A stretch of 64,000 nt of DNA from Escherichia coli (GTDB lineage: Bacteria > Pseudomonadota > Gammaproteobacteria > Enterobacterales > Enterobacteriaceae): NCBI RefSeq assembly GCF_030013205.1, contig NZ_CP122648.1. One strand, 5' to 3'. Position 1 is the first letter of the stretch; every line of letters starts with the position of its first letter. Below, in pieces: positions 28,491 to 62,915 of this stretch. A program made the translations under genes and the position numbers. The notes beneath the pieces were generated by a model that was not told where the DNA came from, searched no databases, and saw only the letters and a program-made list of their open reading frames with translations.

Positions 28491-28582
28491 AACCCTCAAA
28501 ATCCCCCCCATCTATAATTGCATTATGCCCCGTACTTTTGTACGGGGTTTGTACTCTGTATTCGTAACCAAGGGGTCAGCTC

Positions 28583-42198: not shown

Positions 42199-42300
42199 GA
42201 TGCCGGATGCGGCGCGAACGCCTTATCCGGCCTACAAAAGTTTGCAAATTCAATAAATTGCAGAATTCACGTAGGCCTGATAAGCGAAGCGCATCAGGCA
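42199..42300. repeat. REP/BIME element (two inverted REP units)
   Basis: GATGCCGGATGCGGCGCGAACGCCTTATCCGGCCTAC and inverted GTAGGCCTGATAAGCGAAGCGCATCAGGCA. Confidence 0.7.
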
Positions 42301-43498: not shown

Positions 43499-44401
43499 TT
43501 ATGAAAGCATAGACCGTTTACCCTCCCTGGGTACGACGGAACAGGGGTCCTGATGGATAATCACATCCGATCCCGGAAAACGCCGTAAAATAGCCTGCTC
43601 TACCTGATCCGCCACCATATGTGCCTGAACCAAAGGCAGAGAGTCTTCCATTTCCAAATGAATCTGAATAAAGCGGGTCGGCCCTGACTGCCGCGTGCGA
43701 AGATCGTGAGCGCCGCTAACACCCGGCCAGGAAGTCACGATATCAATAATTTCTTGCCGTTCTTCATCAGGCAATGCGCGATCCAGTAATGACTGTACCG
43801 CCTCATATCCCATGCGTAACGCGCTATATAAAATATAGATGCCGATTCCCAATGCAAACAGAGCATCGGCGCGATGCCAGCCATACCAGGACAACCCCAG
43901 CGCCAGCAGAATTGCGCCGTTCATCATAACATCAGACTGGTAATGTAGCATATCAGCCCGCACCGCCTGGCTTTGCGTCCGGCGCACCACCCACCGCTGA
44001 AACGAGACAAGGATAATCGTACAAATTAGCGCCACAATTGTCACGATAACCCCGACGCCTGGATCTGTCATCGGTGTTGGAGATACCAGATGTTGAATAC
44101 CCGTCAAAAACAGGAATAGTGCCGAACCGGAGATAAACATACTTTGCGCCAGCGCCGCGAGGGACTCAGCTTTACCGTGACCAAACGAGTGATTATCGTC
44201 GGCAGGTTGCAGGGAATATCGCACCACCAGTAAATTCGTCAACGACGCGCCGATATCCACCAGCGAATCCACCAGCGCGGCGAGAATACTCACCGACCCG
44301 GTATACCACCATGCAAAAATTTTAATCAGCAATAGCAGTGAAGCCATCGCCGTTGCAGCAATCGCCGCCCGACTGACCAGCCGTCCATAAGATTGATTCA
44401 T
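43499..44401 (-). CDS. fieF: cation-efflux (CDF) transporter
   Basis: ORF trimmed to [16 protein letters not shown] (300 aa); CDF family. Confidence 0.9.
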
Positions 44402-44479
44402 AAATACTCCCGCTATCAACTGACGCTAGTATAACGGAAGCAAATCATCTGCAATGCATTAAGCAGCAGGCAAATTGAG

Positions 44480-44526
44480 GATAAAAAAAACCCCCACATC
44501 ATGTGGGGGAAGACAGGGATGGTGTC
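44480..44526. repeat. prophage att site, fieF-side copy of 47-bp direct repeat
   Basis: GATAAAAAAAACCCCCACATCATGTGGGGGAAGACAGGGATGGTGTC, identical copy at 62846..62892; flanking bases diverge immediately outside. Confidence 0.85.
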
Positions 44527-44637
44527 ACAAAAAAGCACCTAACCTGATGATATAAATGGATTTATATCAAGCACTGTCCACATAGCGTCCACATCGACCA
44601 TAAATAAAGCCCCTCAACTGAGGGGCTATTTTTGTGA

Positions 44638-44856
44638 TCACATCCACATAATTTGCTGCCCTGACGGCAACGGGTGCGGCCTCACGGCGTGGACTTCTCC
44701 CGGCTTCACGATGTATCGCTGTACCGACTCATAAGTGATGAACGTGGCGCTGCAATTCACGTTCTGACACTGGTGATAACGCTCTTTTGTCGTGTCAGTG
44801 ATATAGCGACTTGTACGCGCATGTGCGGCATGCTGGCATAAAGGACAATGAAACAT
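44638..44856 (-). CDS. ogr: late gene transcriptional activator Ogr (C4 zinc finger)
   Basis: ORF trimmed to MFHCPLCQHAAHARTSRYITDTTKERYHQCQNVNCSATFITYE… (72 aa). Confidence 0.9.
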   Translation of the reverse strand: MFHCPLCQHAAHARTSRYITDTTKERYHQCQNVNCSATFITYESVQRYIVKPGEVHAVRPHPLPSGQQIMWM

Positions 44857-44937
44857 CGCGAGCACCTCTTCCGGTTTTGTTGATGGTGCCATTTTAGTTA
44901 ATTTACCCTTATAAAACAAACAGATAAAAACAAAACA

Positions 44938-46101
44938 TCACTCATCATCTTCTGTTTCGTTCTCCACATCAGAAAGCCTGACCTCAAGCTCTAAGGACGT
45001 CGTGAAGCCGCTATTATTCAGAAAATGTGTCACCTTAGTGATTGTCCAGTCCTGCTCGTCTATGACGCGCTTAAAGCCTGATACTTTGACCGGCGTTTCC
45101 GTGTAAATATCTGCCCGACCGGTAGCCAGACTGATGGAAAACTCCGCAACGCCCCGTTGCAGCTTATCCCACTTCGCCTGAGCGGCGCGCATGGCCTGCG
45201 CTTTCGTGGCATATACCGTGGTCAGGGCAAAAACGTTGTCAGCTTCACCGGCCATGTATTCACCTTCGCGCGCTTCCGGTACTTTTGGCGCTTTCTTCTG
45301 CGTGACTGGTTTCGCTTTCGGGTGCTCCAGTGCGCGCAGGTGTTTTTCTTTCTTTTTGCGTTTCAGTTTTACCTTCTGCTTTTGCGGCTTCGGGTCTTTG
45401 GTGTGAAGCCACTTTGCCGTTACGCCGGTATAGGCTCCACGGTCAGCAATCGCAAAATGGTGGCGGTCGCCGTCGCTGCGGGTTATGGTGACCTGCGGGA
45501 TTTTTTTACCGCTGGCCGTCACCCCCTGCCCCGCTTTGAGAAACAACAGTTTTCCCATTTTTACCGAGACCTCACCGCCGTTGCGTTCTGCAAGACGGGT
45601 CAGGAATTTCGCATCAGACTCCTGCGACTGGTCGATGTGCGGAATTTTAATTCCGGCCAGTGACGGAGCGACACTGGCTTCCAGCCTGTTACGGGAGGCT
45701 ATCGCCTCAACAATCGCACCGAGCGTGGTGTCATGCCATGAGCCTTCCCGGCGGGAATTGAGCGTCCCGCGAAAATCTGCACTCCGGGCGCGGATGGTGA
45801 CCACATCCGGTGCGCCCCGGTGTTCAACCTCATCAACGGTAAATTTCCCTTTGCATACCAGGGCAAAACCTTTCCAGCCGATATACACCGTCAGGACAGC
45901 GCCACGAACCGGCAGCCCGACCTGCCCGTCGGCATCGTTCAGTTCAATATCAAGCTGGTCAGCCTCAAAGCCCCGGTTATCCGTCAGGGTCATGCTCATC
46001 AGACGGTCGCTGATATTGCCGGTAATATCCCTGCTGTCGAGCATCAGCATGTAATCCGGCGTCAGCGTACTGCCTGCATCAAATGTCAGCGTATCCAGCA
46101 T
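44938..46101 (-). CDS. D: tail protein D
   Basis: 387-aa ORF in the P2 D position (between U and ogr). Confidence 0.8.
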   Translation of the reverse strand: MLDTLTFDAGSTLTPDYMLMLDSRDITGNISDRLMSMTLTDNRGFEADQLDIELNDADGQVGLPVRGAVLTVYIGWKGFALVCKGKFTVDEVEHRGAPDVVTIRARSADFRGTLNSRREGSWHDTTLGAIVEAIASRNRLEASVAPSLAGIKIPHIDQSQESDAKFLTRLAERNGGEVSVKMGKLLFLKAGQGVTASGKKIPQVTITRSDGDRHHFAIADRGAYTGVTAKWLHTKDPKPQKQKVKLKRKKKEKHLRALEHPKAKPVTQKKAPKVPEAREGEYMAGEADNVFALTTVYATKAQAMRAAQAKWDKLQRGVAEFSISLATGRADIYTETPVKVSGFKRVIDEQDWTITKVTHFLNNSGFTTSLELEVRLSDVENETEDDE

Positions 46102-46580
46102 TATCCCGCCCCCGTCATACCCGTGAATCTGGTCGCCATATTGCCGGCCTTACCGATGAGCGACTCCGCCTGTTTACCGATATCGCCATAAAGCGCGGCC
46201 AGTGATTCATCAACGCGGGTGAGCGACAGCGTAAAATCAATTTTTCGGGGTGTGCCATCTGCAAAGAAAATACTCCCTGTTTCACTCACCTTGCTGATGA
46301 CATACATGCCGTAAATCATTCCGGTGCCATCCAGCAACGGCCACGCCCGGCCTTCCTCTGCCATCAGTCTGAGCGTGGTCATCGTCAGCTTGCCGCCGGT
46401 CAGTTCGGGATAAAGCACACCGGCAAGCGTCATGTTTTCCTCGCCAACACCGAGAAACTGGTAGGCATCCCGTTTACCGATACGGGAATTTGACGGCCAG
46501 CGATAATCAGATTCACGCTGCATGGTCTGGTGTGGCAGCGTCTGGCGCATAAAAACAAACATACCTAACGCGAGCATCAT
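46101..46580 (-). CDS. U: tail protein U
   Basis: 159-aa ORF; start overlaps D stop (ATGA-type coupling). Confidence 0.8.
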   Translation of the reverse strand: MMLALGMFVFMRQTLPHQTMQRESDYRWPSNSRIGKRDAYQFLGVGEENMTLAGVLYPELTGGKLTMTTLRLMAEEGRAWPLLDGTGMIYGMYVISKVSETGSIFFADGTPRKIDFTLSLTRVDESLAALYGDIGKQAESLIGKAGNMATRFTGMTGAG

Positions 46581-46594
46581 TTTTCGTCACCTCC

Positions 46595-48142
46595 TTAACC
46601 GTCATGCATCATGCTGGCACGGGCGCGCGCACGTTTATCCCGCTCGTATTTTTCGAGCGCATCCTGTAACTGGCGGTCAAGCTGTGTCCCCGGCGCAGTA
46701 CCACCCGTCAGGCTGATGTGATATTCGTTTTTACTCTGGTCTACATAAGAGCGGCCAGCCGGTGCCGTGACCGGCTGATAAGCCTGATAGCCTGCATAAG
46801 AGCTGGTCGCCGGAATATAACCACCGGTGCCATACGTGGCGGCATGAGTTCTGGCGGCGGTCTGGTCAAGTGTGTCTGACTCTTTGTTGATAACACCGAG
46901 TTTTTCCAGTACCCAGTCAATACCGCTGCGCAGTTTGTTGAACGCATTAAGCGGCAGCATCAACGCGTCAGCCAGTGCCTGCCCGAACATGACGCCCGAA
47001 TCACGGCAACGGTTCAGGGTGTCCTGGGTGGCTTTGACCGGGGCAATCAGGTTTTTAAACCACTGCCACGCGGCCTGTAACTTTTCACCCAGCCAGTCAA
47101 ACAGCGGCTTAAGTGGCGTGAACAGTTCCCCCACCGGCGCAAATGCTGCTTTCAGCCCTTCAACCACACCGCCAAAGAATGCGCTGACAGGCTCCCAGTA
47201 TTTACGGATAAGCAACGCCCCGGCGACAATGGCGGCCACCACGGCCACAACCGGCCAGCTAATCGCCCCGATGGCCGTCATAACAGCACTGCCAACCGTC
47301 GTGAAGATTGCCCCCATTGCGCCTGCTGCCGCAATGATGGCATTGATGCCGGTGATAACCGGCCAGGCTACAAGACCAATTGCACCGATGATGCCAGTAA
47401 GCGCCAGTGCGCCACCGGCAATGATGCCGATAGTTGCCGCCAGTGATTTGTTTTTCTGTATCCAGCCGTCGAGTTTTAACACATACTTTGTGGCCGTCTG
47501 CGTGAGCTTACGCAGTGCGCCTTCCTGCTGGTCAAACAGGTCAGTCCCCACCGCTTCATAAGCGGACTGAAACTCCTTAAAGTCACCGCCGAGGTTGTCC
47601 TGCATGATTTTAACCAGCTCTTCCGTTTTACCGTCTGAGGCTTTCAGCGTGGCGGTCAGCTTATCCAGTTTTCCGCTTGCAGCCGCTGCCAGTAAAACGT
47701 TCGCTGATTTCAGGGCTTCCTCACCAAAAATGGTTTTAAGGTATTCCCCCTTCTGAGACGTTCCCAGCTTGTGTTTATCAAAGCTGACCTGAATCTCTTT
47801 CAGAATGGTGAACAACGGACGCATATTTCCCTTTTTGTCCGAGGTTTTAACGCCAAGCTCTTTGAGTGCTTCCCATGCTTTCCCTGTCGGAGCCTGTAAT
47901 CGGGTGACAACGGCACTACTCCCCGTACCCAGCATGGAGCCGATGCCGCACACCGCAGGCAGTGACAGGTCAGGAAACTGCACCAGAACAACACCGGCAA
48001 CCATCGAGACAAAACCACCGAGCAACATGCGCCCGATAAACAGACGCGGGGTGATGGGTTCACCACCGGCAAGCACCTTGCCGACAACAATCAGCACCCC
48101 AATCATGAAAAGCGACAGGACGCTTTTTTCTTCTGCTGTCAT
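46595..48142 (-). CDS. in-frame fusion: N-terminal holin (Y)-like membrane segment joined to C-terminal tape-measure (T) fragment
   Basis: 515-aa ORF starts 4 bp inside the X stop (Y position) with hydrophobic holin-like helices (SVLSLFMIGVLIVVGKVLAGG…) and ends just before U (T position) with Ala/Gly-rich tape-measure-like sequence; far too short for an intact T. Confidence 0.65.
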   Translation of the reverse strand: MTAEEKSVLSLFMIGVLIVVGKVLAGGEPITPRLFIGRMLLGGFVSMVAGVVLVQFPDLSLPAVCGIGSMLGTGSSAVVTRLQAPTGKAWEALKELGVKTSDKKGNMRPLFTILKEIQVSFDKHKLGTSQKGEYLKTIFGEEALKSANVLLAAAASGKLDKLTATLKASDGKTEELVKIMQDNLGGDFKEFQSAYEAVGTDLFDQQEGALRKLTQTATKYVLKLDGWIQKNKSLAATIGIIAGGALALTGIIGAIGLVAWPVITGINAIIAAAGAMGAIFTTVGSAVMTAIGAISWPVVAVVAAIVAGALLIRKYWEPVSAFFGGVVEGLKAAFAPVGELFTPLKPLFDWLGEKLQAAWQWFKNLIAPVKATQDTLNRCRDSGVMFGQALADALMLPLNAFNKLRSGIDWVLEKLGVINKESDTLDQTAARTHAATYGTGGYIPATSSYAGYQAYQPVTAPAGRSYVDQSKNEYHISLTGGTAPGTQLDRQLQDALEKYERDKRARARASMMHDG

Positions 48143-48145
48143 GCG

Positions 48146-48349
48146 TTACTCCCACAGATTGACAGTTTCAGCCACGGGCGCGGTCTGAACGTCGGGCAGT
48201 TCGACGGCGGTGCCGTGCGGCAGCACCGCGCCCAGTTCAGCCAGTCCCGGATTTGCGGCGAGCACGGCTTCGACCACGCCCTCAGTGCGCCCGTAATACC
48301 GGACACAGATGGCGTCGAGCGTGTCGCCCTGTAGCGCAAAGGTCTTCAT
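48146..48349 (-). CDS. X: tail protein X
   Basis: ORF trimmed to MKTFALQGDTLDAICVRYYGRTEGVVEAVLAANPGLAELGAVLPHGTAVELPDVQ… (67 aa). Confidence 0.85.
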   Translation of the reverse strand: MKTFALQGDTLDAICVRYYGRTEGVVEAVLAANPGLAELGAVLPHGTAVELPDVQTAPVAETVNLWE

Positions 48350-48858
48350 CAGATTTGACTCACGATGCAGCGCGGCTTGTCCTGGATGCGCGCCACCGCC
48401 CAGCGCATATCCCGCCACAGCTCATCAATGGTGCTGTCAATGCTGTCGGCCTTCTTGTCGCCTTTCGCACTGGCATCCACGCCGCGGTAACGCTCATAAA
48501 GCGACGCGGTCGCCATCGCACACACAGCGCGCTCGTAGTAAAAAACTTTGATGCTTTCACCGTCGATGTCGTCCGCCGGAACGTCCGCCAGACGCGTAAA
48601 ACCGGCGGCAATTTTCTGTTCGCGGTACTCGTACAGCTCCGCATTCGTTTCCGCCATGCCTGACTTGATGGCCTCACGCAGGCGGGCGGGGGCGACGGTC
48701 TGCTCAAGGCGCATACGTTCCCGGACACGCTTCGGGTCGATATCGGGAAAAAAGAACGTGTTTTTAATCACCGGCTCGTCGCCTGCCGGTTGCGGGATGA
48801 CCACCGTACCCTCACCGGACACGGGAGCCTCCTTTCGCGGAATAATCAGCGTCATCAT
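48349..48858 (-). CDS. L: capsid completion protein L
   Basis: ORF trimmed to MMTLIIPRKEAP (169 aa). Confidence 0.8.
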   Translation of the reverse strand: MMTLIIPRKEAPVSGEGTVVIPQPAGDEPVIKNTFFFPDIDPKRVRERMRLEQTVAPARLREAIKSGMAETNAELYEYREQKIAAGFTRLADVPADDIDGESIKVFYYERAVCAMATASLYERYRGVDASAKGDKKADSIDSTIDELWRDMRWAVARIQDKPRCIVSQI

Positions 48859-48957
48859 GACTACCTCTGAAAAGTCGGGCGGTGGACGCCGGTGCAGTGT
48901 CAGGTGATTCACCCTCACTGACCGGCGTGCCGCCCTGGCGCGGGGCGCATTCGGTTG

Positions 48958-49701
48958 TTAACTGGCTTTCTTTTTCGGGCGTCCACGTTTTGCCGGTGTC
49001 ACGCTCCGGGTCTTACGCGGGGTACGGGTGGCCGCTTTGGGCTGCGGCTCCGGCTTCGGTTTCAGCTCCCGCTCCAGTCGTTCAATCTCTTTTTTGACGC
49101 CTGCCTGACAGTCGAGCTGTGTCGCACGTTGCAGGTGAGCCAGCGCCCCTGCGGCATCACCAGCGTCACGCAGAAACAGACCGGTGATTTTGTGCAGTTT
49201 TGCGCGCACTTCATCAGGCATGTCAGCCGTGGCGGTCAGTTCGAGGGTGTCCATCAGCAGGCGGGGATCCACAGACTCACCGGCAGCGTGAGCGCGCATG
49301 GCCGCAAGCGCCACCTCCTCGGTGAACATGTACGGCGGGGTGCGGCGGTGTTTACCCGGCATGGTCAGACCGTACTTCAGGGCATAACGGGCAATCTCCA
49401 GCGCACCGGCAATATCGCCGGTATCCAGACGCCACAGCATGACCGTCATCAGAATGTCATCCTGTGCACCTTTGCCCTGCTCCAGCACGCCGTTCACCCA
49501 CGGCAACCAGAACGGCAGCAGTTCGCGTTTTTTCGCGGCCTTCAGCTCTTTTGAATAAATCGCTTTCAGTGTGCGCTGGTCTGCGGCGAGCTTAACCAGC
49601 ATCTGCTCATAGACAGTTGCATGTCGCAGCGGGGCGGCTTCCCGCTGCGCGGTCATCGCTGCCGAGACCCGCATCATGTGGCGCTGTGCGGGACTCGTCA
49701 T
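48958..49701 (-). CDS. M: terminase endonuclease (small) subunit M
   Basis: 247-aa ORF in the M position between L and N. Confidence 0.8.
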   Translation of the reverse strand: MTSPAQRHMMRVSAAMTAQREAAPLRHATVYEQMLVKLAADQRTLKAIYSKELKAAKKRELLPFWLPWVNGVLEQGKGAQDDILMTVMLWRLDTGDIAGALEIARYALKYGLTMPGKHRRTPPYMFTEEVALAAMRAHAAGESVDPRLLMDTLELTATADMPDEVRAKLHKITGLFLRDAGDAAGALAHLQRATQLDCQAGVKKEIERLERELKPKPEPQPKAATRTPRKTRSVTPAKRGRPKKKAS

Positions 49702-49704
49702 CGG

Positions 49705-50778
49705 TTACGCTCCCGGCTCTGCGGTCGCCCTGGCCGGTGTGGAGAAATCACCGACCTTAATTTTTTCCACCAGGCAACCGGCGGCGTAGTCTTCCACCAC
49801 GTAATCAATGTTCATTGACTCGTAGTTCTCCACGCGGTCGAGTTTCGGGTTTTCCTCAATCACGCGGCGATGGCTGTCATCCATGTAGTAGATGGACAGG
49901 TTTTCCAGCTTCGTGATGAGCATCGCATCCGCCGGGAAGTACGGGACGCGTACCGCCGGCAGGTTACCGATGCGTTTCTGGCTGATGATGACGTCAGCGG
50001 CCAGCATTTCGCTGTTGTCCTGCTCTTTGTTAACGATGGGGAAATACTTGTCCGCCAGTAGCTGACGCCCCACAATCACCACAAGGTCAGGGTCTTCCTG
50101 ATACCACGGCTCAATCAGGTTGTTGGTCGCATCCATCACCAGTGCATCAAGGCTGGCATAATCACCGCCCTTACCCACGCGGATAACCTCAGAGGTGGTG
50201 CGGCCTTCCTCGTCAGTGACCTTGCTCATCACACGCGCCGGGGCTTCATTGCGGTATTTCTGCAGCCAGCCAACCGCCACATCCTGCAGCATCGGATTGC
50301 TGCTGCGGTCAGAGGTTTCGGCACGCTTCACGCCGTTAAAACCGGCCATGATGAAATCAAGGGACTGGCGTTTGATAATGGCGTTACGGATACGGAGCTG
50401 GAAATCCTGATAACGCGCCCACAGGTCAAGCGTTTTGTAGCGGATATAAAAATCGAAGTTAATCTGGTCGCATTCGTACTTGTTAGACGCCAGCTTCGAG
50501 AAGTCCTTCGGCTGACGCTCGGTGCCACCGGCGGTGTCGGTGGTGCTGGCGATGGAGCCGGTGACACCGATACCAATTTTTTCCCCTTTCATTTCGCTGA
50601 CCGGCACAATGTTGATGCGGGTCAGAAAATCAGAGGACTCCTGCATGGTGTTCATCAGGGTCTGGGTGACCGACGGTTCAACGGTGAATTTTTTCGACAC
50701 ATCACCGGCGTCGATGCCGTTCAGTTCGGCAACACGGGACAGGTAGGCATTAAATTTAAAGCGGGTTTCCTGGCGCAT
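49705..50778 (-). CDS. N: major capsid protein N
   Basis: 357-aa ORF. Confidence 0.85.
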   Translation of the reverse strand: MRQETRFKFNAYLSRVAELNGIDAGDVSKKFTVEPSVTQTLMNTMQESSDFLTRINIVPVSEMKGEKIGIGVTGSIASTTDTAGGTERQPKDFSKLASNKYECDQINFDFYIRYKTLDLWARYQDFQLRIRNAIIKRQSLDFIMAGFNGVKRAETSDRSSNPMLQDVAVGWLQKYRNEAPARVMSKVTDEEGRTTSEVIRVGKGGDYASLDALVMDATNNLIEPWYQEDPDLVVIVGRQLLADKYFPIVNKEQDNSEMLAADVIISQKRIGNLPAVRVPYFPADAMLITKLENLSIYYMDDSHRRVIEENPKLDRVENYESMNIDYVVEDYAAGCLVEKIKVGDFSTPARATAEPGA

Positions 50779-50836
50779 AGTTTTTCCTGAAATTAAGGGT
50801 TAATCGTGAAGGTTTTTCCGGACTGACTGACGCCGG

Positions 50837-51691
50837 TCAGCAGTTCGTCATCAGGGCGTCACCGCCACCGCCGGTGGCCTTGCTGCGGCGCTGCTGGGTC
50901 AGACTTTCGGTGTGGTCGAGACTGTTTTTCAGGCGGGTGAATGCCTGGCTGGTTTCATCCGCCCTGTCAGTCACCTCCTGCTTAAGTGCGGAAAAGGCGG
51001 TTTCCATCTCAGCGAGGCGCTGCTCAGTGGCGCTCAGCTTTTCCTGCACATGTTCAGCAACAGCGGTCACCGCTTCATGCACATCATTCAGACGGGCGTC
51101 ATCGCTGGCCTGTTTGCGGCCAAAAATGGATTTCACCTTTTCGGTCAGGGCGGTGAACACGGTTTCAGGCAGGTCTTCAAATTCCAGCTCAACAGGCGTT
51201 GCCACTGAAATCAGGTTTTCAGGGCTTAATTTGAAGCGGTTCAGGGGGTTGTGTTTTGCCGTGCGGCAGAATTCCAGGTATTCCGTGCCGAGGCTTGCCG
51301 GGTCATCGGTGACGGCCAGACCCACCAGATAACATTTGCCGGTATTGGCAAAGTTCGGCTGAATTTCCATTGAGGTATAGACCTTCTGCGCGGCCTTGTT
51401 CATCGCGATAAGGTCATCGGTCGGGGTGATTTTCGCAAACAGCGCCCATTTGCCTTTCAGCGCCGAATCGTCATCAATCTTTTCGGCCTTCAGTTCAACC
51501 ACATCGCCATAACGTTTAAAAATACCGTCAGGCAGGATGCCGCGCAGATGTTCCAGGTTAATGCGGCAACCATAGACGCGCGGGTCAAAGGTTTCAGCCA
51601 TTTCCTGAATATCCTGCGCACTGATGACACGCCCGTCACAGGTGTCACCCTCAACGCCGATACGAAAGAATTTTGAGACTTTTTTTGCCAT
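50837..51691 (-). CDS. O: capsid scaffolding protein O
   Basis: ORF trimmed to MAKKVSKFFRIGVEGDTCDGR (284 aa). Confidence 0.8.
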   Translation of the reverse strand: MAKKVSKFFRIGVEGDTCDGRVISAQDIQEMAETFDPRVYGCRINLEHLRGILPDGIFKRYGDVVELKAEKIDDDSALKGKWALFAKITPTDDLIAMNKAAQKVYTSMEIQPNFANTGKCYLVGLAVTDDPASLGTEYLEFCRTAKHNPLNRFKLSPENLISVATPVELEFEDLPETVFTALTEKVKSIFGRKQASDDARLNDVHEAVTAVAEHVQEKLSATEQRLAEMETAFSALKQEVTDRADETSQAFTRLKNSLDHTESLTQQRRSKATGGGGDALMTNC

Positions 51692-51864
51692 TGTCAGGAG
51701 TCCTGAATAGTGATTAGAGGAGTCACATGTCGGCATCAGTTTCCCGACGATGCGCATCCTCCGCCATCAGTCCCGGATGGCTTATCACTGACACAACAGC
51801 ACCTTAGCGAATCGCGGGGCGCGACTCAGTAGGCTTGCCGTGTATTCATCACGGCGAGGTATTC
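51692..51864. promoter_or_regulatory. divergent phage late promoter region (O-operon and P-Q operon; Ogr-dependent)
   Basis: intergenic region between divergent O and P; call is by position in the P2 map, no operator motif confidently identified. Confidence 0.4.
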
Positions 51865-53637
51865 ATGACCATCACCACAGACACCACTCTTTTACACGAC
51901 CCGCGTCGTCAGGCGGCGCTGCTGTACTGGCAGGGGTTTTCCGTGCCGCAGATTGCCGCCATGTTGCAGATGAAACGCCCGACGGTGCAGAGCTGGAAAC
52001 AGCGCGACGGCTGGGACAGCGTTGCCCCCATCAGCCGTGTCGAAATGAGTCTGGAAGCGCGGCTGACCCAGCTCATCATCAAACCGCAGAAAACCGGCGG
52101 TGACTTCAAGGAAATTGACCTGCTCGGACGCCAGATTGAACGGCTGGCACGGGTCAACCGTTACAGTCAGACCGGCAACGAGGCAGACCTTAATCCGAAC
52201 GTCGCTAACCGCAACAAAGGCGGGCGTCGCAAACCGAAAAAGAATTTTTTCAGCGACGAAGCCATCGAAAAGCTGGAGCAGATTTTCTTTGAGCAGTCTT
52301 TCGACTATCAGTTGCACTGGTATCGCGCCGGGCTTGAGCACCGCATCCGCGATATCCTGAAATCCCGCCAGATTGGCGCGACGTTTTATTTTTCCCGCGA
52401 GGCGCTGCTGCGTGCCCTGAAAACCGGTCATAACCAAATTTTTCTGTCGGCCAGTAAAACGCAGGCGTATGTGTTCCGCGAATACATCATCGCCTTTGCC
52501 CGTCTGGTTGACGTTGACCTGACCGGTGACCCGATTGTCCTGGGCAATAACGGCGCAAAACTGATTTTTCTCGGCACCAACTCCAACACCGCGCAGAGCC
52601 ATAACGGCGACCTGTACGTCGACGAGATTTTCTGGATCCCGAATTTTCAGGTACTGCGTAAGGTGGCATCAGGTATGGCCTCACAGAGCCACCTGCGCTC
52701 GACCTATTTCTCCACCCCGTCCACGCTGGCGCACGACGCCTACCCATTCTGGTCGGGTGAACTGTTCAACCGGGGACGCGCCAGCGCCGCTGAACGCGTG
52801 GAAATCGACGTCAGTCATAACGCCCTTGCCGGGGGGCTTCTCTGTGCGGACGGCCAGTGGCGGCAGATTGTCACCATTGAGGACGCCCTGAAAGGTGGCT
52901 GCACGCTGTTCGACATTGAGCAGCTCAAACGTGAAAACAGCGCCGACGATTTTAAAAACCTGTTCATGTGTGAATTTGTTGACGACAAGGCGTCGGTGTT
53001 CCCGTTCGAGGAGCTGCAACGCTGCATGGTCGACACGCTGGAAGAATGGGAAGACTATGCGCCGTTTGCCGCCAATCCGTTCGGCTCCCGCCCGGTATGG
53101 ATTGGTTACGACCCGTCACACCGTGGCGACAGCGCCGGATGCGTGGTGCTGGCACCGCCGGTGGTGGCCGGAGGTAAATTCAGAATACTTGAGCGTCACC
53201 AGTGGAAAGGCATGGACTTTGCCACTCAGGCGGAATCCATCCGCAAACTCACCGAAAAATACAACGTCGAATACATCGGAATTGATGCCACCGGCCTCGG
53301 TGTCGGCGTGTTCCAGCTCGTGCGCTCGTTCTATCCCGCCGCGCGCGATATCCGCTACACGCCGGAAATGAAAACCGCAATGGTGCTCAAGGCAAAAGAC
53401 GTCATCCGCCGTGGCTGTCTGGAATATGACGTCAGCGCCACCGACATCACCAGCTCGTTCATGGCTATCCGCAAGACCATGACCAGCAGCGGACGCAGCG
53501 CCACCTATGAGGCCAGCCGTAGCGAGGAAGCCAGCCACGCCGACCTCGCCTGGGCGACCATGCACGCCCTGTTAAATGAGCCACTCACCGCCGGTATCAG
53601 CACCCCGCTGACATCCACCATTCTGGAGTTTTACTGA
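51865..53637 (+). CDS. P: terminase ATPase (large) subunit P
   Basis: ORF trimmed to MTITTDTTLLHDPRRQAALLYWQGFSV (590 aa). Confidence 0.9.
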   Translation: MTITTDTTLLHDPRRQAALLYWQGFSVPQIAAMLQMKRPTVQSWKQRDGWDSVAPISRVEMSLEARLTQLIIKPQKTGGDFKEIDLLGRQIERLARVNRYSQTGNEADLNPNVANRNKGGRRKPKKNFFSDEAIEKLEQIFFEQSFDYQLHWYRAGLEHRIRDILKSRQIGATFYFSREALLRALKTGHNQIFLSASKTQAYVFREYIIAFARLVDVDLTGDPIVLGNNGAKLIFLGTNSNTAQSHNGDLYVDEIFWIPNFQVLRKVASGMASQSHLRSTYFSTPSTLAHDAYPFWSGELFNRGRASAAERVEIDVSHNALAGGLLCADGQWRQIVTIEDALKGGCTLFDIEQLKRENSADDFKNLFMCEFVDDKASVFPFEELQRCMVDTLEEWEDYAPFAANPFGSRPVWIGYDPSHRGDSAGCVVLAPPVVAGGKFRILERHQWKGMDFATQAESIRKLTEKYNVEYIGIDATGLGVGVFQLVRSFYPAARDIRYTPEMKTAMVLKAKDVIRRGCLEYDVSATDITSSFMAIRKTMTSSGRSATYEASRSEEASHADLAWATMHALLNEPLTAGISTPLTSTILEFY

Positions 53638-54671
53638 TGAGCAAGAAAAAAGGGAAAACACCGCAACCTGCGGCAAAAAAAATGACCGCCAGCGCCCCGA
53701 AAATGGAGGCATTCACCTTTGGTGAGCCGGTGCCGGTACTCGACCGCCGTGACATTCTGGATTACGTCGAGTGCATCAGTAACGGCAGATGGTATGAGCC
53801 ACCAGTCAGCTTTACCGGTCTGGCAAAAAGCCTGCGTGCTGCCGTGCATCACAGCTCACCGATTTACGTCAAACGCAATATTCTGGCCTCGACATTTATC
53901 CCACATCCGTGGCTTTCCCAGCAGGATTTCAGCCGCTTTGTGCTGGATTTTCTGGTGTTCGGTAATGCGTTTCTGGAAAAGCGTTACAGCACCACCGGCA
54001 AGGTCATCAGACTGGAAACCTCACCGGCAAAATATACCCGCCGTGGTGTGGAAGAGGATGTTTACTGGTGGGTGCCGTCCTTCAACGAGCCGACAGCCTT
54101 CGCGCCCGGTTCCGTGTTTCACCTGCTGGAGCCGGATATTAATCAGGAGCTGTACGGCCTGCCGGAATATCTCAGCGCCCTTAACTCTGCCTGGCTGAAT
54201 GAGTCAGCCACGCTGTTCCGCCGCAAGTATTACGAAAACGGCGCTCATGCCGGATACATCATGTACGTCACCGATGCCGTGCAGGATCGCAACGATATCG
54301 AAATGCTTCGCGAAAACATGGTTAAGTCGAAAGGCCGCAACAACTTTAAAAACCTGTTTCTCTATGCCCCGCAGGGGAAAGCTGACGGCATTAAAATTAT
54401 CCCGCTCAGTGAAGTGGCGACGAAGGACGATTTTTTTAATATCAAAAAAGCCAGTGCCGCAGACCTGCTGGACGCGCACCGCATCCCCTTTCAGTTGATG
54501 GGCGGCAAGCCGGAGAACGTCGGGTCGCTGGGTGATATTGAGAAAGTGGCAAAGGTCTTTGTCCGCAATGAGCTTATCCCGTTACAGGACAGGATTCGGG
54601 AAATAAACGGCTGGCTCGGTCAGGAGGTCATCCGCTTTAAAAACTACTCACTGGACACTGACAACGGCTGA
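53637..54671 (+). CDS. Q: portal protein Q
   Basis: 344-aa ORF; start overlaps P stop. Confidence 0.9.
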   Translation: MSKKKGKTPQPAAKKMTASAPKMEAFTFGEPVPVLDRRDILDYVECISNGRWYEPPVSFTGLAKSLRAAVHHSSPIYVKRNILASTFIPHPWLSQQDFSRFVLDFLVFGNAFLEKRYSTTGKVIRLETSPAKYTRRGVEEDVYWWVPSFNEPTAFAPGSVFHLLEPDINQELYGLPEYLSALNSAWLNESATLFRRKYYENGAHAGYIMYVTDAVQDRNDIEMLRENMVKSKGRNNFKNLFLYAPQGKADGIKIIPLSEVATKDDFFNIKKASAADLLDAHRIPFQLMGGKPENVGSLGDIEKVAKVFVRNELIPLQDRIREINGWLGQEVIRFKNYSLDTDNG

Positions 54672-54676
54672 ACATC

Positions 54677-54698
54677 GCCGCCTGCGGGCGGCTTTTTT
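54677..54698 (+). terminator. rho-independent terminator after Q
   Basis: GCCGCC-TGCG-GGCGGC followed by TTTTTT. Confidence 0.6.
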
Positions 54699-54840
54699 AC
54701 ACCCTGTCATCACGCCCTCACACGCTCACCACCGCACAAAACACCCCGCAGACACACCAACGCCTCAACGGGCAGACTAAACGCCGTCACGACGCGCTCA
54801 GACGCTGAAAAAATAAAATCAGCACCACCGCCAGCGCGCA

Positions 54841-54859
54841 GTGCTTTCCCCGCCTCGCC
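54841..54859. other. cos site (19-nt cohesive-end sequence)
   Basis: GTGCTTTCCCCGCCTCGCC is the reverse complement of GGCGAGGCGGGGAAAGCAC, the P2/186 cohesive end as I recall it; lies between Q and the cargo, as in the P2 map. Confidence 0.55.
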
Positions 54860-54987
54860 CGCCCGCTTCATGGGTCGGTTTTAATGCAGGTGCATGAACA
54901 CACTGGAGACGCACCAGTACTGGCGGTGGTCACGTAGATCCGCCCCTTAAAAGCCATGCAGAATAATGCAACTATTGCGGGCGTCGG

Positions 54988-55407
54988 CTAATCATCTTCT
55001 AAAGGTGGAATTTTGATGCCACTAATTAGCAGTACTTTCCGGTATGCCTCAAAAATAATGTTGTGTGTTTTTTGTAAATCATCGAGCATTTTTTGCCGTC
55101 CTGCTGGGGTATCTTTGGCAAAATTATGAGCGCGAAAAAAATCATGTGCCAAGTAGTTTCTGGCTTTAAGAGCATCTGACACATACTCCAGTGTATCAGC
55201 ATCCTCCACCATCCTAGACTTCAGTGCGTAATTCAATTTACCCAGCGTGTATTTATCCATTTCTAAAAACTGTTTTTTCAGCGACTGTATATCTTTCCCC
55301 TGACTCATATCATACTCAGTGATAACATTTATCAACTCAGTCTCCAGTAATTGAGCTGCTTCCGAAGCATAACCAAATTTCCAATAAACCGTATCAAGCG
55401 TCACCAT
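54988..55407 (-). CDS. hypothetical cargo protein with R-x4-H (HEPN-like) motif
   Basis: 139-aa ORF in AT-rich DNA, codirectional with and downstream of the HNH gene; contains ARNYLAHDFF. Confidence 0.6.
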   Translation of the reverse strand: MVTLDTVYWKFGYASEAAQLLETELINVITEYDMSQGKDIQSLKKQFLEMDKYTLGKLNYALKSRMVEDADTLEYVSDALKARNYLAHDFFRAHNFAKDTPAGRQKMLDDLQKTHNIIFEAYRKVLLISGIKIPPLEDD

Positions 55408-55498
55408 ATAATCTATTCCCCATATAACAAATCACACCCAAAATTAAATCATAACACATAATTAAATCTAACGCCTCTCTGCACCAGAAGAAGTCATG

Positions 55499-56830
55499 TT
55501 AACGCTTATCATGGAACTTTTTCCATTTTGTCATCAACTTTCCAGCATCAAGTTCTACATGATGCGGTTGTAGAGTTTTACCCTCAAACATAGTTTTGTG
55601 GATACAATTAATAGAGAAATGAACCGTTAAGTCCTCTGGATTAATCCCCATTAATCCTTTATCAAACATTCGGTGTAAACTTACTTCAAGTAACAGGCCA
55701 TTAGATGTGTTATTATTTGCTGATTCTGTTATTGCTTCAATATGTGCGGCTTCCAATATCCCCTCTGGCAATGGATAGCCAGTAATAGCACATCTGCCAT
55801 TGAAGTTATCCCAAACACGGCGTTTGAAATCAGCTTGATCTCCAGCATGACGGACTTTGTGAGTAACCTCGACTGTTCGTCCTGTAGCACAGGTATCGTT
55901 TGCGGCCTTGAAAGGATTAATTAGACTTTCATTAATGGCTATATCCGTTCCATCCATGATAAGAGATATTTCATTATTGGGTTCGGGTGATGTTAATGGA
56001 CTTATGTACTGATTGCTTAAAAAAGTCATACTAGATTCTTCATCAGTCGCGAGTTTCCACGCTTCTGATTGTGTCATTGTTAGCAATGCCGTTTGATAAA
56101 CTTGCTTATTAAAATAACGTTTATCTTTCTTGTAACTCCCCATATTAATAGTACTAGATTTAATCGGAAGTGTTTTATCACCAATTAGTAGATCACGTAT
56201 TTCTACAGTCTCTTCTAAGGTATCAATAGGAGCTACTATAGGGTTAGTAAACGGGTTATCTACATGATCTACGTGGTTGTGTCGTAAATGCCACTCTATA
56301 GCACTATCTTTTATATGTATCTCGCAGACAGGGCATACAATAAGCCCCATAGATGTTACAGGTAGCTTTTTGCCACCGATTAAGCGTAATGTATTTGCAT
56401 TCTGGTTATGTACTTTCTTTTGGTTCTGTGTCAGTACACTACGCTTAGCCTCTAAACGGGTCGGAATCTTAGCAAGATTAAGCGATTTACGGCTCTCTTG
56501 TCTCTCAAGATCATAGATCCGAATCCCTGCTTCAGTTTTGATTTTTGTCCACATAGAGATAGAACTAAGGAATTTATGTCCATGTACTTTTTCATAATCA
56601 GCATAAGCTTGCAAAGTAGCAGTGGAACTATCTAATCCTTTTTTACGGAGTGCTGTATATTGCTGAAAAAGATTAATAGCATGAGCTGTAATAGAGCGCC
56701 TATTCTCTATAATTTGCGCTTTTTTTGCTGCTTGTTCTGCTTGCAATGCTTTTTGTTCAGGGGTAAGCGACTTCTTTTTGGCTTTCTTGGTTCTTTTCTT
56801 ACTCAAAGTTTTCTTACTGTTATTGTTCAT
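55499..56830 (-). CDS. HNH nuclease-domain cargo protein (Lys-rich N-terminus, C2H2-like zinc finger, C-terminal HNH)
   Basis: 443-aa ORF; N-terminus SKKTLSKKRTKKAKKK; CPVCEIHIKDSAIEWHLRHNH; C-terminus GRCAITGYPLPEGILEAAHIEAI…SNGLLLEVSLHRMFDKGLMGI resembles the HNH endonuclease core; AT-rich. Confidence 0.7.
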   Translation of the reverse strand: MNNNSKKTLSKKRTKKAKKKSLTPEQKALQAEQAAKKAQIIENRRSITAHAINLFQQYTALRKKGLDSSTATLQAYADYEKVHGHKFLSSISMWTKIKTEAGIRIYDLERQESRKSLNLAKIPTRLEAKRSVLTQNQKKVHNQNANTLRLIGGKKLPVTSMGLIVCPVCEIHIKDSAIEWHLRHNHVDHVDNPFTNPIVAPIDTLEETVEIRDLLIGDKTLPIKSSTINMGSYKKDKRYFNKQVYQTALLTMTQSEAWKLATDEESSMTFLSNQYISPLTSPEPNNEISLIMDGTDIAINESLINPFKAANDTCATGRTVEVTHKVRHAGDQADFKRRVWDNFNGRCAITGYPLPEGILEAAHIEAITESANNNTSNGLLLEVSLHRMFDKGLMGINPEDLTVHFSINCIHKTMFEGKTLQPHHVELDAGKLMTKWKKFHDKR

Positions 56831-56939
56831 TTTGCAAGCCTTTAATCTAATTCATGGAAAGGGGCATTCACTTGCCCTGTATCCAGTAAACTGACATAAC
56901 ACGATATAAGCAAGCTCCGTAATTCTTTCATGTTAATCA

Positions 56940-59258
56940 TCAATGGTCCATTGTGAATCCCGGCCACTCATCAGCGACCGGATACGTGAATTTTTTACCG
57001 TCGTAATTTACAGTCGCGCCACGCGCCAGCGCCTCAAGCTCCCATCTCTGAGGCCTGATACCGTTCTGAGCAAGGTCTACGCGGATACGGGTAATTTGCA
57101 TTCGTTCTGACCGGGTCAGTCTGGCCGATGGTGCAATTTCATGCGGTTTTAACGGGCTTCCGTTTCTTTGCTGACGGTTTGGCGTTCTCAGGTCGTATTT
57201 TAATGCGCCCCTGAGCGCCCTCACGACCTCCGGTTCATTCCATTCAATAACACCGTCATCAACCAGATTAAGCACTGCTGCGGCGTGCTCAGAAGGAGTG
57301 GGAGCCGGTAACGAAGTATCACCGCTGGTGAGCTTTCCACAGTTATTGACAGGACTCCGAGGCGCGGCGATGCCGCTTTTTAAAGTCAAAGGCTCAACGA
57401 CCGGAACTTTCGGCACAATGCGCCAGTCCGTCGTTCTGGTGATATGAATATGACGCGCGCCGAGATGCGGCGCGTAAATGCCGACCACTCTCTCGACTTC
57501 TTCCTCGTATTCGTTAACGTCATCCGACGGGCTACGGGCGACCCTGACAGTCTGACAATCGCGCGGGACATTTGCCCCGCCCTGCGCGCTGATATACAGC
57601 GCAAAATCGCCACTGTCTGCGGCGGCGCGTGCAGCCTCCACGCGTTCGTCAAATTCATCAGCAATGCTGACGCCGCGAGGCAATTTACGTAGCTCACGGT
57701 AAGCTCCCATTGTCGGCAGGCCAACCGTTTTAAATTGCGGGATGCGCCACGTTGATGCCCATGCGGTAACAGCCGCCGCAGTATCTTTCAGCGGTCTGCC
57801 GGTATCGTTATCGAGCTGACCATCCAGTGCATAGCCGTCGATATTTTTTGAAATGTATTTCGCGATATATCCCGCAGCACCGCCCCGGTTAAGGTGTTTT
57901 GCCTGAAAACGGTTTCGCGCGGCTCCTCTTTCGTCGCCATCCTCTTTGAGCGCATAGCGACGCATGATTTCGATAATCTGGTTACGCTGGCGTGGATTAC
58001 AAAAAAGCATCATATGCCAGTGCGGCGTTCCGTCGTGGTGTGGCTCGACGACTCGCAAACCGTAGACCTGTAAATCATTATCCTTGAATGCCGTGCGCAT
58101 CAGGCTCCAGATACGGCAGAGATAACGCTGCGCATCCTTTGGATTAAATGCCTCATCATTCCAGCCGTGATTAAGCTGGACGGTTTTATTTTCGCCTTTT
58201 CCGACCTGACGTGTCGGGTGATACTTTGACGGCGCGGTAAGCGTGATAAACATCCCCACATCACCCTCTGAGGCGGCGTAACGCTCAATACCGGCAATGG
58301 TGTTCATCAGCTCCATCCGGCGAATTTCAGGATTAGAAATACTGCCCATCACCTTACTGATAAGGTCGATGCGCTCGCCGGTTTCCCTGTTTTCAAGGTC
58401 ACACGATTTAAGAAATTCCAGATTTGCCTGGCGGCGCGCACGCACATCACGAATGGCGTGTTTACTGGCATAAGGAGAACGGTCTTTATTGACCTCCCCG
58501 ACAGCTATCAGTAACGCTTCATGCCAGCGCATACGCTGGCCTTTAAGCTGATGAGTCCACCACTCATCGTTAAACAGACGGGCAATTGCAGAATATGCCT
58601 GCCTCGTGGTCATCTGTCCTTTACGGTATTTTTTCCAGTAGAGAGGGGAAATATTGAAAGCACGTGCAGCACCAGCAACATGACCATAGAGGTGAGCCTG
58701 CGCCTCATCCGTAAACAGCGATTCTTTTTCGCCATGCGCATCCACCCAGGCATCGCTGAGTTCCTCATACATCATGAAAAGCTGCGATGAGATACGGGCA
58801 GCAAACTTTTTCAGCTCCTTGTCATTCATTCCCGGCAGGCGCGCATAGTGGTCACGCTCTGCCAGAAACAGTAACGACGCGTCGGTGTTCATTTCATGGC
58901 GCTGATTCACACGCTCAATGCGCGGCCATAAACGACGCTGAAAAGTGGATGTGAGGAAATAAAACCCGTGCACCGGGCTTTTATTGCGCCGGATGTAGTC
59001 ATAGCGTGAAGTAAACAGCGAGCGCAAAAAGTAAGGCAGGCGGTTAATCGTGGATAAAACACCTTGCACCTGACGCATCTCGTCACGTGTAAGGGGTCTT
59101 TCGCGCCCGACAGCCTCGCGTGGCGCGTTCCATGCATAAGCACCTGTAAACGCCTTACCGGTGCCTGCGGCAAATGCTGACGGAGGGACAAAACGTCCGG
59201 AGGCTTTAACGGCCATGTGAGCCAAAAGCCTCTGAACAACGCTTGCTGAGTTGCTCAA
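56940..59258 (-). CDS. A: replication initiation endonuclease A (rolling-circle Rep)
   Basis: 772-aa ORF in the P2 A position; true start may be a few codons downstream. Confidence 0.85.
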   Translation of the reverse strand: MSNSASVVQRLLAHMAVKASGRFVPPSAFAAGTGKAFTGAYAWNAPREAVGRERPLTRDEMRQVQGVLSTINRLPYFLRSLFTSRYDYIRRNKSPVHGFYFLTSTFQRRLWPRIERVNQRHEMNTDASLLFLAERDHYARLPGMNDKELKKFAARISSQLFMMYEELSDAWVDAHGEKESLFTDEAQAHLYGHVAGAARAFNISPLYWKKYRKGQMTTRQAYSAIARLFNDEWWTHQLKGQRMRWHEALLIAVGEVNKDRSPYASKHAIRDVRARRQANLEFLKSCDLENRETGERIDLISKVMGSISNPEIRRMELMNTIAGIERYAASEGDVGMFITLTAPSKYHPTRQVGKGENKTVQLNHGWNDEAFNPKDAQRYLCRIWSLMRTAFKDNDLQVYGLRVVEPHHDGTPHWHMMLFCNPRQRNQIIEIMRRYALKEDGDERGAARNRFQAKHLNRGGAAGYIAKYISKNIDGYALDGQLDNDTGRPLKDTAAAVTAWASTWRIPQFKTVGLPTMGAYRELRKLPRGVSIADEFDERVEAARAAADSGDFALYISAQGGANVPRDCQTVRVARSPSDDVNEYEEEVERVVGIYAPHLGARHIHITRTTDWRIVPKVPVVEPLTLKSGIAAPRSPVNNCGKLTSGDTSLPAPTPSEHAAAVLNLVDDGVIEWNEPEVVRALRGALKYDLRTPNRQQRNGSPLKPHEIAPSARLTRSERMQITRIRVDLAQNGIRPQRWELEALARGATVNYDGKKFTYPVADEWPGFTMDH

Positions 59259-59481
59259 CCTGCACGTTTAAATCAGCAAAAGACTTTGCGCTTCCGGTCA
59301 GAATATCGTGATGCATCAGGCCTGAAACGAGCTGGCTTAATTTCGGGTAATAACCAACCACCGCCAGCCATTCCTGACCGGCGTTTTTACCGCTTTCAGC
59401 TCTCTTTTTCTCGTGGAGAATAAACTGAAAGCTGTCACTGGTAACGACATAACGTTCGCCAATTTCAATACGAATACTCAT
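59206..59481 (-). CDS. hypothetical early-region protein (P2 orf83-like position)
   Basis: 91-aa ORF, tightly packed codirectional array between B and A. Confidence 0.45.
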   Translation of the reverse strand: MSIRIEIGERYVVTSDSFQFILHEKKRAESGKNAGQEWLAVVGYYPKLSQLVSGLMHHDILTGSAKSFADLNVQVEQLSKRCSEAFGSHGR

Positions 59482-59702
59482 GCCGTTCTCCGGTAATGTT
59501 TGTTTTTTGCTTCAAAGACTGACTGACAGGAAACACAACGCGTGGCTGACGGGTAAGCCGCACGACGGGCAGCAGGTATTGGCGCGTCACACTCTTCGCA
59601 AACCAGCGCAGAAGCACCGCAATGTTTTACCCTTGCCGCGTTAATCTGGCGCTCCAGTAATTCAGCCTGTTGTTCCTGAATAAAATCTACGTTGTCCGGC
59701 AT
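59478..59702 (-). CDS. TraR/DksA-type C4 zinc-finger protein (P2 orf82-like)
   Basis: 74-aa ORF with CEEC…CVSC zinc finger (CGASALVCEECDAPIPAARRAAYPSATRCVSCQ). Confidence 0.6.
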   Translation of the reverse strand: MPDNVDFIQEQQAELLERQINAARVKHCGASALVCEECDAPIPAARRAAYPSATRCVSCQSVFEAKNKHYRRTA

Positions 59703-60007
59703 TACCAGTTCCTTTTGTCGTTCAGTTTTTTAAATTCATCAGCGCAATAGCTGGCGATTTCTGTCGTTAATTTCGTCAGTTCATCCACGGAGGAAATTTG
59801 CTTGTGAAATACAGCGCGTTTAACAAGTAAATTGACCACATCAGACAGGAGGTTTAATTCACTCTGATAAATCGCGATAACAGATTCAGTTATTTCGCGT
59901 TTTTCTTTATCAAGACCAAGTTGAATAAGAGACAAATCGCCATTTTTCATAACGGCGATTTTTAAGGCATTGTTCAGTAAAACAACTGAACGAGAACAGG
60001 ACATCAA
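59702..60007 (-). CDS. hypothetical early-region protein
   Basis: 101-aa ORF; start/stop overlaps with neighbours. Confidence 0.45.
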
Positions 60008-60261
60008 AGCACCTCCCCGCGAGACAATCCGATGTTGTGAAATTTTTCCGACTCCTGACTGAGCAGCTCGACTATCTCCACGCGGGATAACTCCGCCTTT
60101 GTGATGTGGCGAATCATGGCGTCAAGATGAGAAGAAAAGCGCGTCGCTGCATCGGCCTGTGCTTCGGTTCTGGCCTGTTGCAGCAGTAATGCGTATTTAC
60201 CGCACTGATTTTCAGAAACTGTATGCATGACTTTCTCCAGGCAAAAAGAAGCCCCGCACAA
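60004..60261 (-). CDS. hypothetical early-region protein
   Basis: 85-aa ORF; translational coupling to the next ORF. Confidence 0.45.
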
Positions 60262-60291
60262 TTAAGTGCGTTAAAAACTCTGGTTAATTAC

Positions 60292-60798
60292 TTAATGCAG
60301 ATATTGCTCTGGTTTTACCGACGTCAGAATTGTCGGTGCATACTCAAACAGGCTGAATAATTCACGTAATGCACGGAATAAAGCATCACGCCAGTAACAT
60401 GACTCTTCATTAATTCGCCAGTATGGCTGGTTGAATTCTTTTTCAGTCAATCCGGCATGCATAAATAAAGTGCGACGCTGACTGACTGTTAAAAAACTAA
60501 TATATGCATACTCACTTGCGCCAACCTGACGGCGTTTTGAGAATGCCCCACGCAATTCATCAATTGCACAAACCAGCCGTTCACGTTCGACGTCGTTCAT
60601 TTCTTCAAAACGCATCGTTGCGTGACGCTGTTTTAACTGCGCATGAAAGCAAACCGTTAGCCGTTCGCGCTCCATCATCTGATTATAATAATCACATGTA
60701 TCCTGCCAGCGAGGAACGGCAAGATGCTTACCAATTATCCGGCGCATAGCTGCTGGCTGTTTTTCAACGAGATTGAGCGTCATCACTGTCATTTCCAT
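60292..60798 (-). CDS. B: replication protein B (helicase loader-like)
   Basis: 168-aa ORF in the P2 B position downstream of cox. Confidence 0.7.
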   Translation of the reverse strand: MEMTVMTLNLVEKQPAAMRRIIGKHLAVPRWQDTCDYYNQMMERERLTVCFHAQLKQRHATMRFEEMNDVERERLVCAIDELRGAFSKRRQVGASEYAYISFLTVSQRRTLFMHAGLTEKEFNQPYWRINEESCYWRDALFRALRELFSLFEYAPTILTSVKPEQYLH

Positions 60799-60961
60799 AC
60801 CCTCCGGCTTTTCAGAAAGGTCAGAGCCTTTTTTAACGGACTCTGTTTTTTGGTGCGGATAATGATTCCCTTACGCCCCTTACCGTGGGTGATGGTGAAG
60901 TCAATCGCCCTTGGGCTTTCGTTACGCAGTAACTGAGCAATACAACGCGGTTCACTCATAA

Positions 60962-61680: not shown

Positions 61681-61719
61681 CACTCTATAAACATTATATT
61701 TTCACCATTTGTTACCAAG

Positions 61720-62730: not shown

Positions 62731-62845
62731 ATTTCCCTTCTGAGTGTCCACATAGTGTCCACACTCTCAGAACTTTGTAGCCCTTCCAGTCCCTTATAGG
62801 TTTTCTTAAGTTACTGTTTTCTTACGGAAACTGATGTAAGTGATT

Positions 62846-62892: not shown

Positions 62893-62915
62893 TATGGCAA
62901 GGAAAACAGGGTTTA

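Follow-up and report, generated by a model that had tools for sequence, protein, structure and literature searches.

Positions 44480-44937 of the window, a stretch of 64,000 nucleotides from the Escherichia coli contig NZ_CP122648.1, very probably form the P-O-B' junction of a defective Wphi-type, P2-like prophage that lies between cpxP and fieF and has left the proximal upstream sequence of fieF unchanged. The prophage remnant spans 44480-62892 (18.4 kb). Between its two att core copies lie ogr, D, U, a truncated T, L, M, N, O, P, Q, a cargo region, A, B, cox, C and int. The chromosomal genes flanking the remnant are fieF and pfkA beyond the ogr-side core copy and cpxP and cpxR beyond the int-side copy. 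An earlier note on this DNA had claimed that a prophage was integrated between cpxP and fieF and that ogr was transcribed toward fieF, and both claims hold. It had described the DNA upstream of fieF as an att copy plus the 3' end of ogr; the att copy is there, but the ogr gene is present in its entirety. The coordinates of the features are given in Table 1. The junction is the expected product of a known phage at a known site and matters little as it stands, the prophage structure being already known, common and well understood.

Table 1. Features of the two prophage junctions and their neighbors in the window.
Feature	Position	Strand	Description
fieF (yiiP)	43499-44401	minus	CDF-family cation efflux transporter, 300 aa; ATG at 44401
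B' arm	44402-44479	minus	native 78-nt spacer from att core to fieF ATG
att core (O), ogr-side junction	44480-44526	minus	47 nt; P-O-B' (attR in the lambda/P2 convention)
cpxP/CpxQ intrinsic terminator copy, predicted	44483-44509	minus only	stem-loop 44491-44509, U8 tract 44483-44490
Phage P arm of attP	44527-44607	minus	81 nt
ogr terminator hairpin, predicted	44608-44627	both	begins 10 nt past the ogr stop
ogr	44638-44856	minus	complete, 72 aa; zinc-finger activator of P2-type late promoters
D-ogr spacer	44857-44937	minus	81 nt
int	61750-62730	plus	tyrosine integrase of Wphi specificity, convergent with cpxP; Pfam Int_N and Phage_integrase
att core, second copy, int/cpxP-side junction	62846-62892	minus	B-O-P'
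CpxQ sRNA (cpxP 3' UTR)	62849-62906	minus	intact, 58 nt
cpxP	62916-63419	minus	Pfam LTXXQ 8e-22; annotated in strains 042 and K_EC180

The att copy proposed at 44480-44526 was confirmed as one half of an exact 47-nt direct repeat, the other half being 62846-62892. No other long exact repeat was found in the window. The empty site of strain 042 (B-O-B'), the attP of fiAA91-ss (P-O-P') and the two window junctions (B-O-P' and P-O-B') were compared in a four-way alignment, which gave the exact Campbell pattern with breakpoints precisely at the core ends. Most complete E. coli genomes match the junction queries only as far as 44526 on one side and only from 62846 on the other. We take cpxP to be the usual upstream neighbor of fieF. 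That the two are normally adjacent, as had been stated, was seen in strain 042 and in most of 120 Enterobacterales species.

The integrase was identical to Wphi Int at 325 of 326 residues (99.7%) and repressor C to Wphi C at 97 of 97. Compared with the attP of Wphi (NC_005056) two substitutions were found in 311 nt, with one over the P arm and none in the core. The attachment site of Wphi and L-413C has been placed at MG1655 coordinate 4104392 (PMC3448106), the E. coli W genome is listed with 'cpxP-fieF: Wphi1 (P2)' (PMC3032704) and a 31-kb prophage has been described between cpxP and fieF in O157 (PMC7609406). The fieF-core-P-ogr junction was present in 695 of 5426 complete E. coli genomes and the int-P'-core-cpxP junction in 779. 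The cpxP-fieF site is occupied in approximately 13-14% of complete E. coli genomes, or about 1 in 7. Nearly all of the other complete genomes stop matching at 44526, the last base of the core, some of them with 100% identity.

The prophage carries an internal deletion of about 15 kb (14.96 kb in comparison with phage 899), running from within the holin gene to within T. The deletion junction was located by blastn against phage 899 at 47926-47941, where 16 nt of microhomology are found. Lysis, tail and baseplate genes have been taken out, and because about 15 kb is lost the prophage in the window would be unable to make virions. The order left after the deletion is O-N-M-L-X-holin'-'T-U-D-ogr, co-linear on the minus strand. 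At the junction an in-frame fusion ORF (46595-48142, minus) joins the first ~72 codons of holin to the C-terminal part of the tape-measure gene T and contains both a Pfam holin domain and a tape-measure domain. Only six complete genomes share this deletion junction and all are porcine ETEC. The remnant retains int, cox, C and both att sites intact, so that its excision may still be possible. The prophage of K_EC180 matches at 99.99% identity wherever the two share sequence; its deletion is larger, with window positions 46484-53351 absent.

The cargo region lies at 54894-56955, between Q and A. Nothing in phage 899 matches it, and the genes listed for Wphi at this position are different. It codes for a 443-aa HNH_2-domain protein (55499-56830, minus) and also holds a 139-aa ORF (54988-55407, minus) with a weak PADLOC match to PD-Lambda-3_B (E = 0.002). 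The position between Q and A is that of the old/tin anti-phage hotspot of P2.

The att core corresponds to nt 15-58 of the small RNA CpxQ plus 3 nt, and reads GACACCATCCCTGTCTTCCCCCACATGATGTGGGGGTTTTTTTTATC on the minus strand. A 58-nt sequence taken to be CpxQ was used as an exact-match query, and it matched the window exactly at 62849-62906. CpxQ was placed by this match because an Rfam 15 search at gathering score returned no family on the CpxQ sense strand. The query sequence fits the published length and the published C5, C6 and U7. CpxQ is described as 58 nt long, with C5, C6 and U7, in 10.1101/271551, and RNase E releases it from the cpxP 3' UTR (PMC9438474). The copy on the fieF side (44483-44526) holds only CpxQ nt 15-58, and the sequence 5' of these is the phage P arm. 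It is without nt 1-14, the seed region with C5, C6 and U7, and is therefore not a full CpxQ.

CpxQ nt 1-36 were near-invariant in an alignment of 24 species, in which compensatory changes across genera were also seen in the stem of the cpxP/CpxQ terminator. A 22-nt stretch of CpxQ was found exactly in more than 120 Enterobacterales species. A Wphi-like integrase follows directly after the CpxQ stretch in about 10 of the 120 species retrieved, including members of Rosenbergiella, Erwinia and Serratia, and in many species an additional 0.4-3 kb of DNA separates CpxQ from fieF. The extra DNA and the integrases in other species point to the CpxQ-fieF site as an integration hotspot well beyond E. 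coli. The identity of the core with the 3' 44 nt of CpxQ would account for its unusual length of 47 nt and for the usability of the site across the Enterobacterales. In Erwinia psidii (L031) only an int fragment and ogr are left. This species had been taken up as an independent P arm and was dropped as uninformative, the second core being absent from the locus.

The core was found in 54 IMG/VR contigs. In all of them the P arm ends at CpxQ nt 15, and the idea of a phage with full-length CpxQ was rejected for this reason. At least four types of int-side arm were observed at the same CpxQ core, starting AATCACTTACATC, AGGTACTTAGAAAAAATCC, AATTACTTACATGC and AATAACTTAC. Since these arm types adjoin one core, the contigs suggest that several integrase lineages share a single CpxQ target.

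Rfam RF02628, the Erwinia 'Hfq-regulated sRNA 1' (Hrs1), gave 44.5 bits at 62849-62921 (+) and 31.8 bits at 44483-44549 (+), both below its gathering score of 56.4. These matches sit on the strand opposite CpxQ, with the terminator-side boundary common to both, and Hrs1 looks like CpxQ modelled on the wrong strand. Gathering-level Rfam matches elsewhere in the window were the ES036/CssrF sRNA at 42237-42278 (+), between sbp and pfkA, the ClpQY (hslVU) promoter element at 28528-28585 (+) and the L31 ribosomal protein leader at 23864-23916 (-). All three are ordinary chromosomal features.

The P arm appears to be recombination machinery and not fieF regulatory DNA. It contains two Int arm-type sites ATGTGGAC as direct repeats at 44576-44583 and 44587-44594, and the int-side arm contains the arm-type site TGTGGACA twice. 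The published consensus for P2-type arm sites is tgTGGaCa (PMC3448106, Nilsson et al. 2011). An IHF-like sequence, TATCATCAGGTTA, is found at 44540-44552 with one mismatch to WATCARNNNNTTR. Its ATCA....GTTR skeleton is retained in the divergent P arms of the IMG/VR contigs.

The ogr gene was identified by Pfam (Ogr_Delta, 1.1e-21) and is annotated as ogr or ogrK in the matching phages and genomes. Its translation has four cysteines, C4, C7, C30 and C35 (Cys-X2-Cys...Cys-X4-Cys), with the spacing of P2 Ogr. Gene D (Pfam Phage_GPD) is directly upstream and ends at 44938. A relaxed scan of the spacer between D and ogr gave a candidate ogr promoter, TTGTTT-17-TAAAAT, with the -35 at 44914-44919 and the -10 at 44891-44896. 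A strict promoter scan of the same spacer gave zero matches, and the assignment is a putative one.

Two hairpins had been reported between ogr and fieF. Both are present, the first at 44608-44627 and not at 44611-44630, a difference of 3 nt. Both pass a Rho-independent terminator scan on the minus strand (GC-rich stem-loop and U tract). Three terminator-like sites were found in 44200-45100 vs 0.5 expected from shuffles. The hairpin behind ogr has eight pairs, six of them G-C, and a dG of -15.3 kcal/mol (z = -5.8; 0 of 200 shuffles were as stable). It passes the scan on both strands, with the tails TTATTTAT on the minus and ATTTTTGT on the plus strand. It would end ogr transcription on the minus strand, and in the free phage would meet int transcription on the plus strand. 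Because its U tract is broken up (UUAUUUAU), some read-through is possible. The stem-loop in the core copy has a dG of -13.7 kcal/mol, with the tail TTTTTTTT on the minus and AAGACAGG on the plus strand. For both terminators the efficiency is inferred.

The fieF product matched Pfam Cation_efflux (1e-50) and ZT_dimer (1.5e-26), and RefSeq annotates the identical DNA of strains 042 and K_EC180 in the same way. Over 44380-44526, a stretch that takes in the 125 nt before the fieF ATG, the window shows 100% identity to 042, O157:H7 and further element-free strains. These 125 nt are unchanged because the crossover falls within the 47-nt identity, and they contain both the candidate -10 of fieF and the native cpxP/CpxQ terminator. 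The earlier note had held that the insertion replaces the native upstream context of fieF. This is correct for the DNA beyond -125 relative to the ATG, the only part replaced, and incorrect for the proximal 125 nt.

A relaxed sigma-70 scan of the B' arm gave a candidate fieF promoter with the -35 ATTGCA/TTGCAG at ~44449-44455 and the -10 TATACT at 44428-44433. The -35 is weak and the -10 matches the hexamer at five of six positions. The Shine-Dalgarno sequence of fieF in this arm is GGGAG. In the 24-species alignment of the CpxQ-fieF spacer TCCGyTATACTA was the sole conserved block besides the Shine-Dalgarno sequence; it is the -10 hexamer at 44428-44433, 46 nt into the bacterial arm. A strict sigma-70 scan of the fieF spacer gave zero matches, so that the putative promoter call rests on the 5/6 -10 hexamer and its cross-genus conservation. 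In PMC4817254 (Grabowicz 2016) 'the promoter of fieF' is placed downstream of CpxQ and cpxP is described as the most strongly Cpx-induced promoter. A literature search found no mapped fieF transcription start site and no report of Cpx control of fieF.

Taken together these features suggest how the junction arose and what it would mean for fieF. The Wphi tyrosine integrase, probably with IHF, would have recombined the attP core with an identical 47-bp bacterial core consisting of the 3' 44 nt of CpxQ, with its Rho-independent terminator, plus 3 nt. Both junctions carry the core because the crossover lies inside the identity. On the int side cpxP and CpxQ are regenerated intact. Directly upstream of fieF its native 78-nt spacer is retained, with the candidate promoter, and so is the same terminator, that terminator copy now being fused to P-arm sequence in place of CpxQ nt 1-14. 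At the empty site transcription comes toward fieF from cpxP through one terminator, whereas in the window it comes from ogr through two in series. Transcription from ogr, or late-operon transcription fused to it by the deletion, would have to cross both intrinsic terminators to reach fieF. That gene would, as in strains lacking the element, rely on a promoter of its own. With an att site of this design integration would be nearly neutral for cpxP and fieF. Most likely there is no meaningful change in fieF expression; we infer this absence of an effect because the 125 nt before fieF are unchanged.

That the insertion nevertheless alters fieF expression, through read-through from ogr or the late operon or through uncoupling of fieF from cpxP read-through or distal elements, is unlikely. 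The ogr gene and the O-N-M-L-X-holin'-'T-U-D block are co-directional with fieF, and the deletion, in making the late O operon co-linear with T'-U-D-ogr, would add a further possible source of incoming transcription. The U tract of the ogr terminator is interrupted, the DNA beyond -125 of fieF is replaced, and the promoter that no longer faces fieF is that of cpxP, for which the strongest Cpx induction is reported (PMC4817254). The one plausible difference is that any Cpx-driven read-through from cpxP is lost, which would be a real, if small, change. Against such an effect, the unchanged 125 nt before the fieF ATG include the conserved -10 and the native U8 terminator, two terminators stand in series before the gene, fieF is not listed as Cpx-regulated in the literature searched and the same junction is found in about 13% of complete E. 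coli genomes.

With regard to neighbor effects of the prophage cpxP and CpxQ deserve at least as close a look as fieF, on account of antisense transcription from int. On the plus strand from the int stop (62730) to cpxP (62731-63136) no terminator-like site was found in the scan. A C-int transcript would be constitutive and, with no plus-strand terminator between int and cpxP, would in the lysogen continue into CpxQ and cpxP in the antisense direction. For the free phage, the C-int transcript would meet the bidirectional ogr terminator instead. A Wphi-type attP carries two-thirds of CpxQ in the sense orientation behind ogr, giving a chimeric 3' module at 44483-44526. It is conceivable, if very unlikely, that the prophage modulates the Cpx/CpxQ circuit by a decoy or variant sRNA or by an antisense RNA, in which case the affected neighbor would be cpxP/CpxQ and not fieF. 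If true, this would concern the roughly 1 in 7 E. coli strains with an element here.

A more specific proposal is that the fieF-side core is itself expressed, by ogr read-through and RNase E processing, as a chimeric CpxQ-like RNA (P arm plus CpxQ nt 15-58) acting as a second sRNA or as a sponge for Hfq or targets. We give this very little credence. The core points the same way as ogr and closes with the full CpxQ terminator with U8, a GC|UUU sequence that agrees with the RNase E consensus RN|WUU (10.1101/271551) is found 8 nt ahead of the core, and Rfam Hrs1 matches this copy weakly (31.8 bits). Opposed to this, the scans gave no promoter-like site between the ogr terminator and the core, and the strong ogr terminator sits upstream of the core copy. 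CpxQ nt 1-14, the seed shown to pair with cfa (C5, C6 and U7; 10.1101/271551), are missing, and the sequence immediately 5' of the core differs from one phage lineage to another (54 IMG/VR contigs) as recombination arms would, unlike an RNA. Finally, the reading of the 47-nt repeat as chance or as an assembly artefact, with no site-specific integration, can be dismissed, as the exact repeat encloses a set of phage genes that runs from ogr to int, and the empty site and the free attP in other records break exactly at the repeat ends, which refutes an artefact.

The window prophage resembles Wphi (NC_005056) in the gene order D-ogr-att-int-C-cox and in its chromosomal site between cpxP and fieF (PMC3448106, PMC3032704), and the attP sequence is shared with L-413C and fiAA91-ss. 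It differs from Wphi in missing about 15 kb, from part of holin through the 5' part of T, and from phage 899 in its cargo between Q and A. The parts of the published Wphi site descriptions available to us call the site intergenic and do not mention CpxQ. CpxQ was reportedly described in 2016. No paper linking CpxQ to phage integration was found in the literature search, and an EPEC RIL-seq paper and a lambda RIL-seq preprint contained no information on a phage-derived CpxQ-like RNA. The overlay of CpxQ and the att core, each a known fact, may be unstated but is not a new kind of system.

The junction is also like those of 186/Fels-2/HP1-type integrases, which use tRNA or tmRNA genes and long cores, in that integration rebuilds the 3' end of a small-RNA gene from a long identity block. 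This logic of a restored 3' end has been given for tRNA sites (PMC3448106). The target differs, being a 3'-UTR-derived sRNA and its mRNA terminator instead of a tRNA, and the arm sites are P2-type (tgTGGaCa) and not 186-type.

The same layout is seen in P2 at the cyaR locus, represented in K-12 by an ogrK-D' remnant that abuts the CyaR 3' end (L180, 1100-1300). There too D'-ogr is followed by a GC-rich hairpin (AAAAAAGCCCCTCGACTGAGGGGCTT), a P arm with GTCCACA-type repeats and the core, which is again the terminator end of an Hfq-dependent sRNA (CyaR, Rfam 100.7 bits). We take the CyaR end to be the complement of the published 27-nt P2 core. From 44547 on, the window shares ~92% identity with the P2 P arm and ogr. 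P2 differs in core sequence and host locus, and its core is 27 nt vs 47 nt here. In addition, the CyaR terminator is convergent with ogrK, whereas the CpxQ terminator is co-oriented with ogr, and because of this orientation the Wphi-type core acts as a second terminator after ogr and provides none for int. P2-type integrases seem to favor the terminator ends of Hfq-dependent sRNAs, CyaR being the target for P2 and CpxQ for Wphi.
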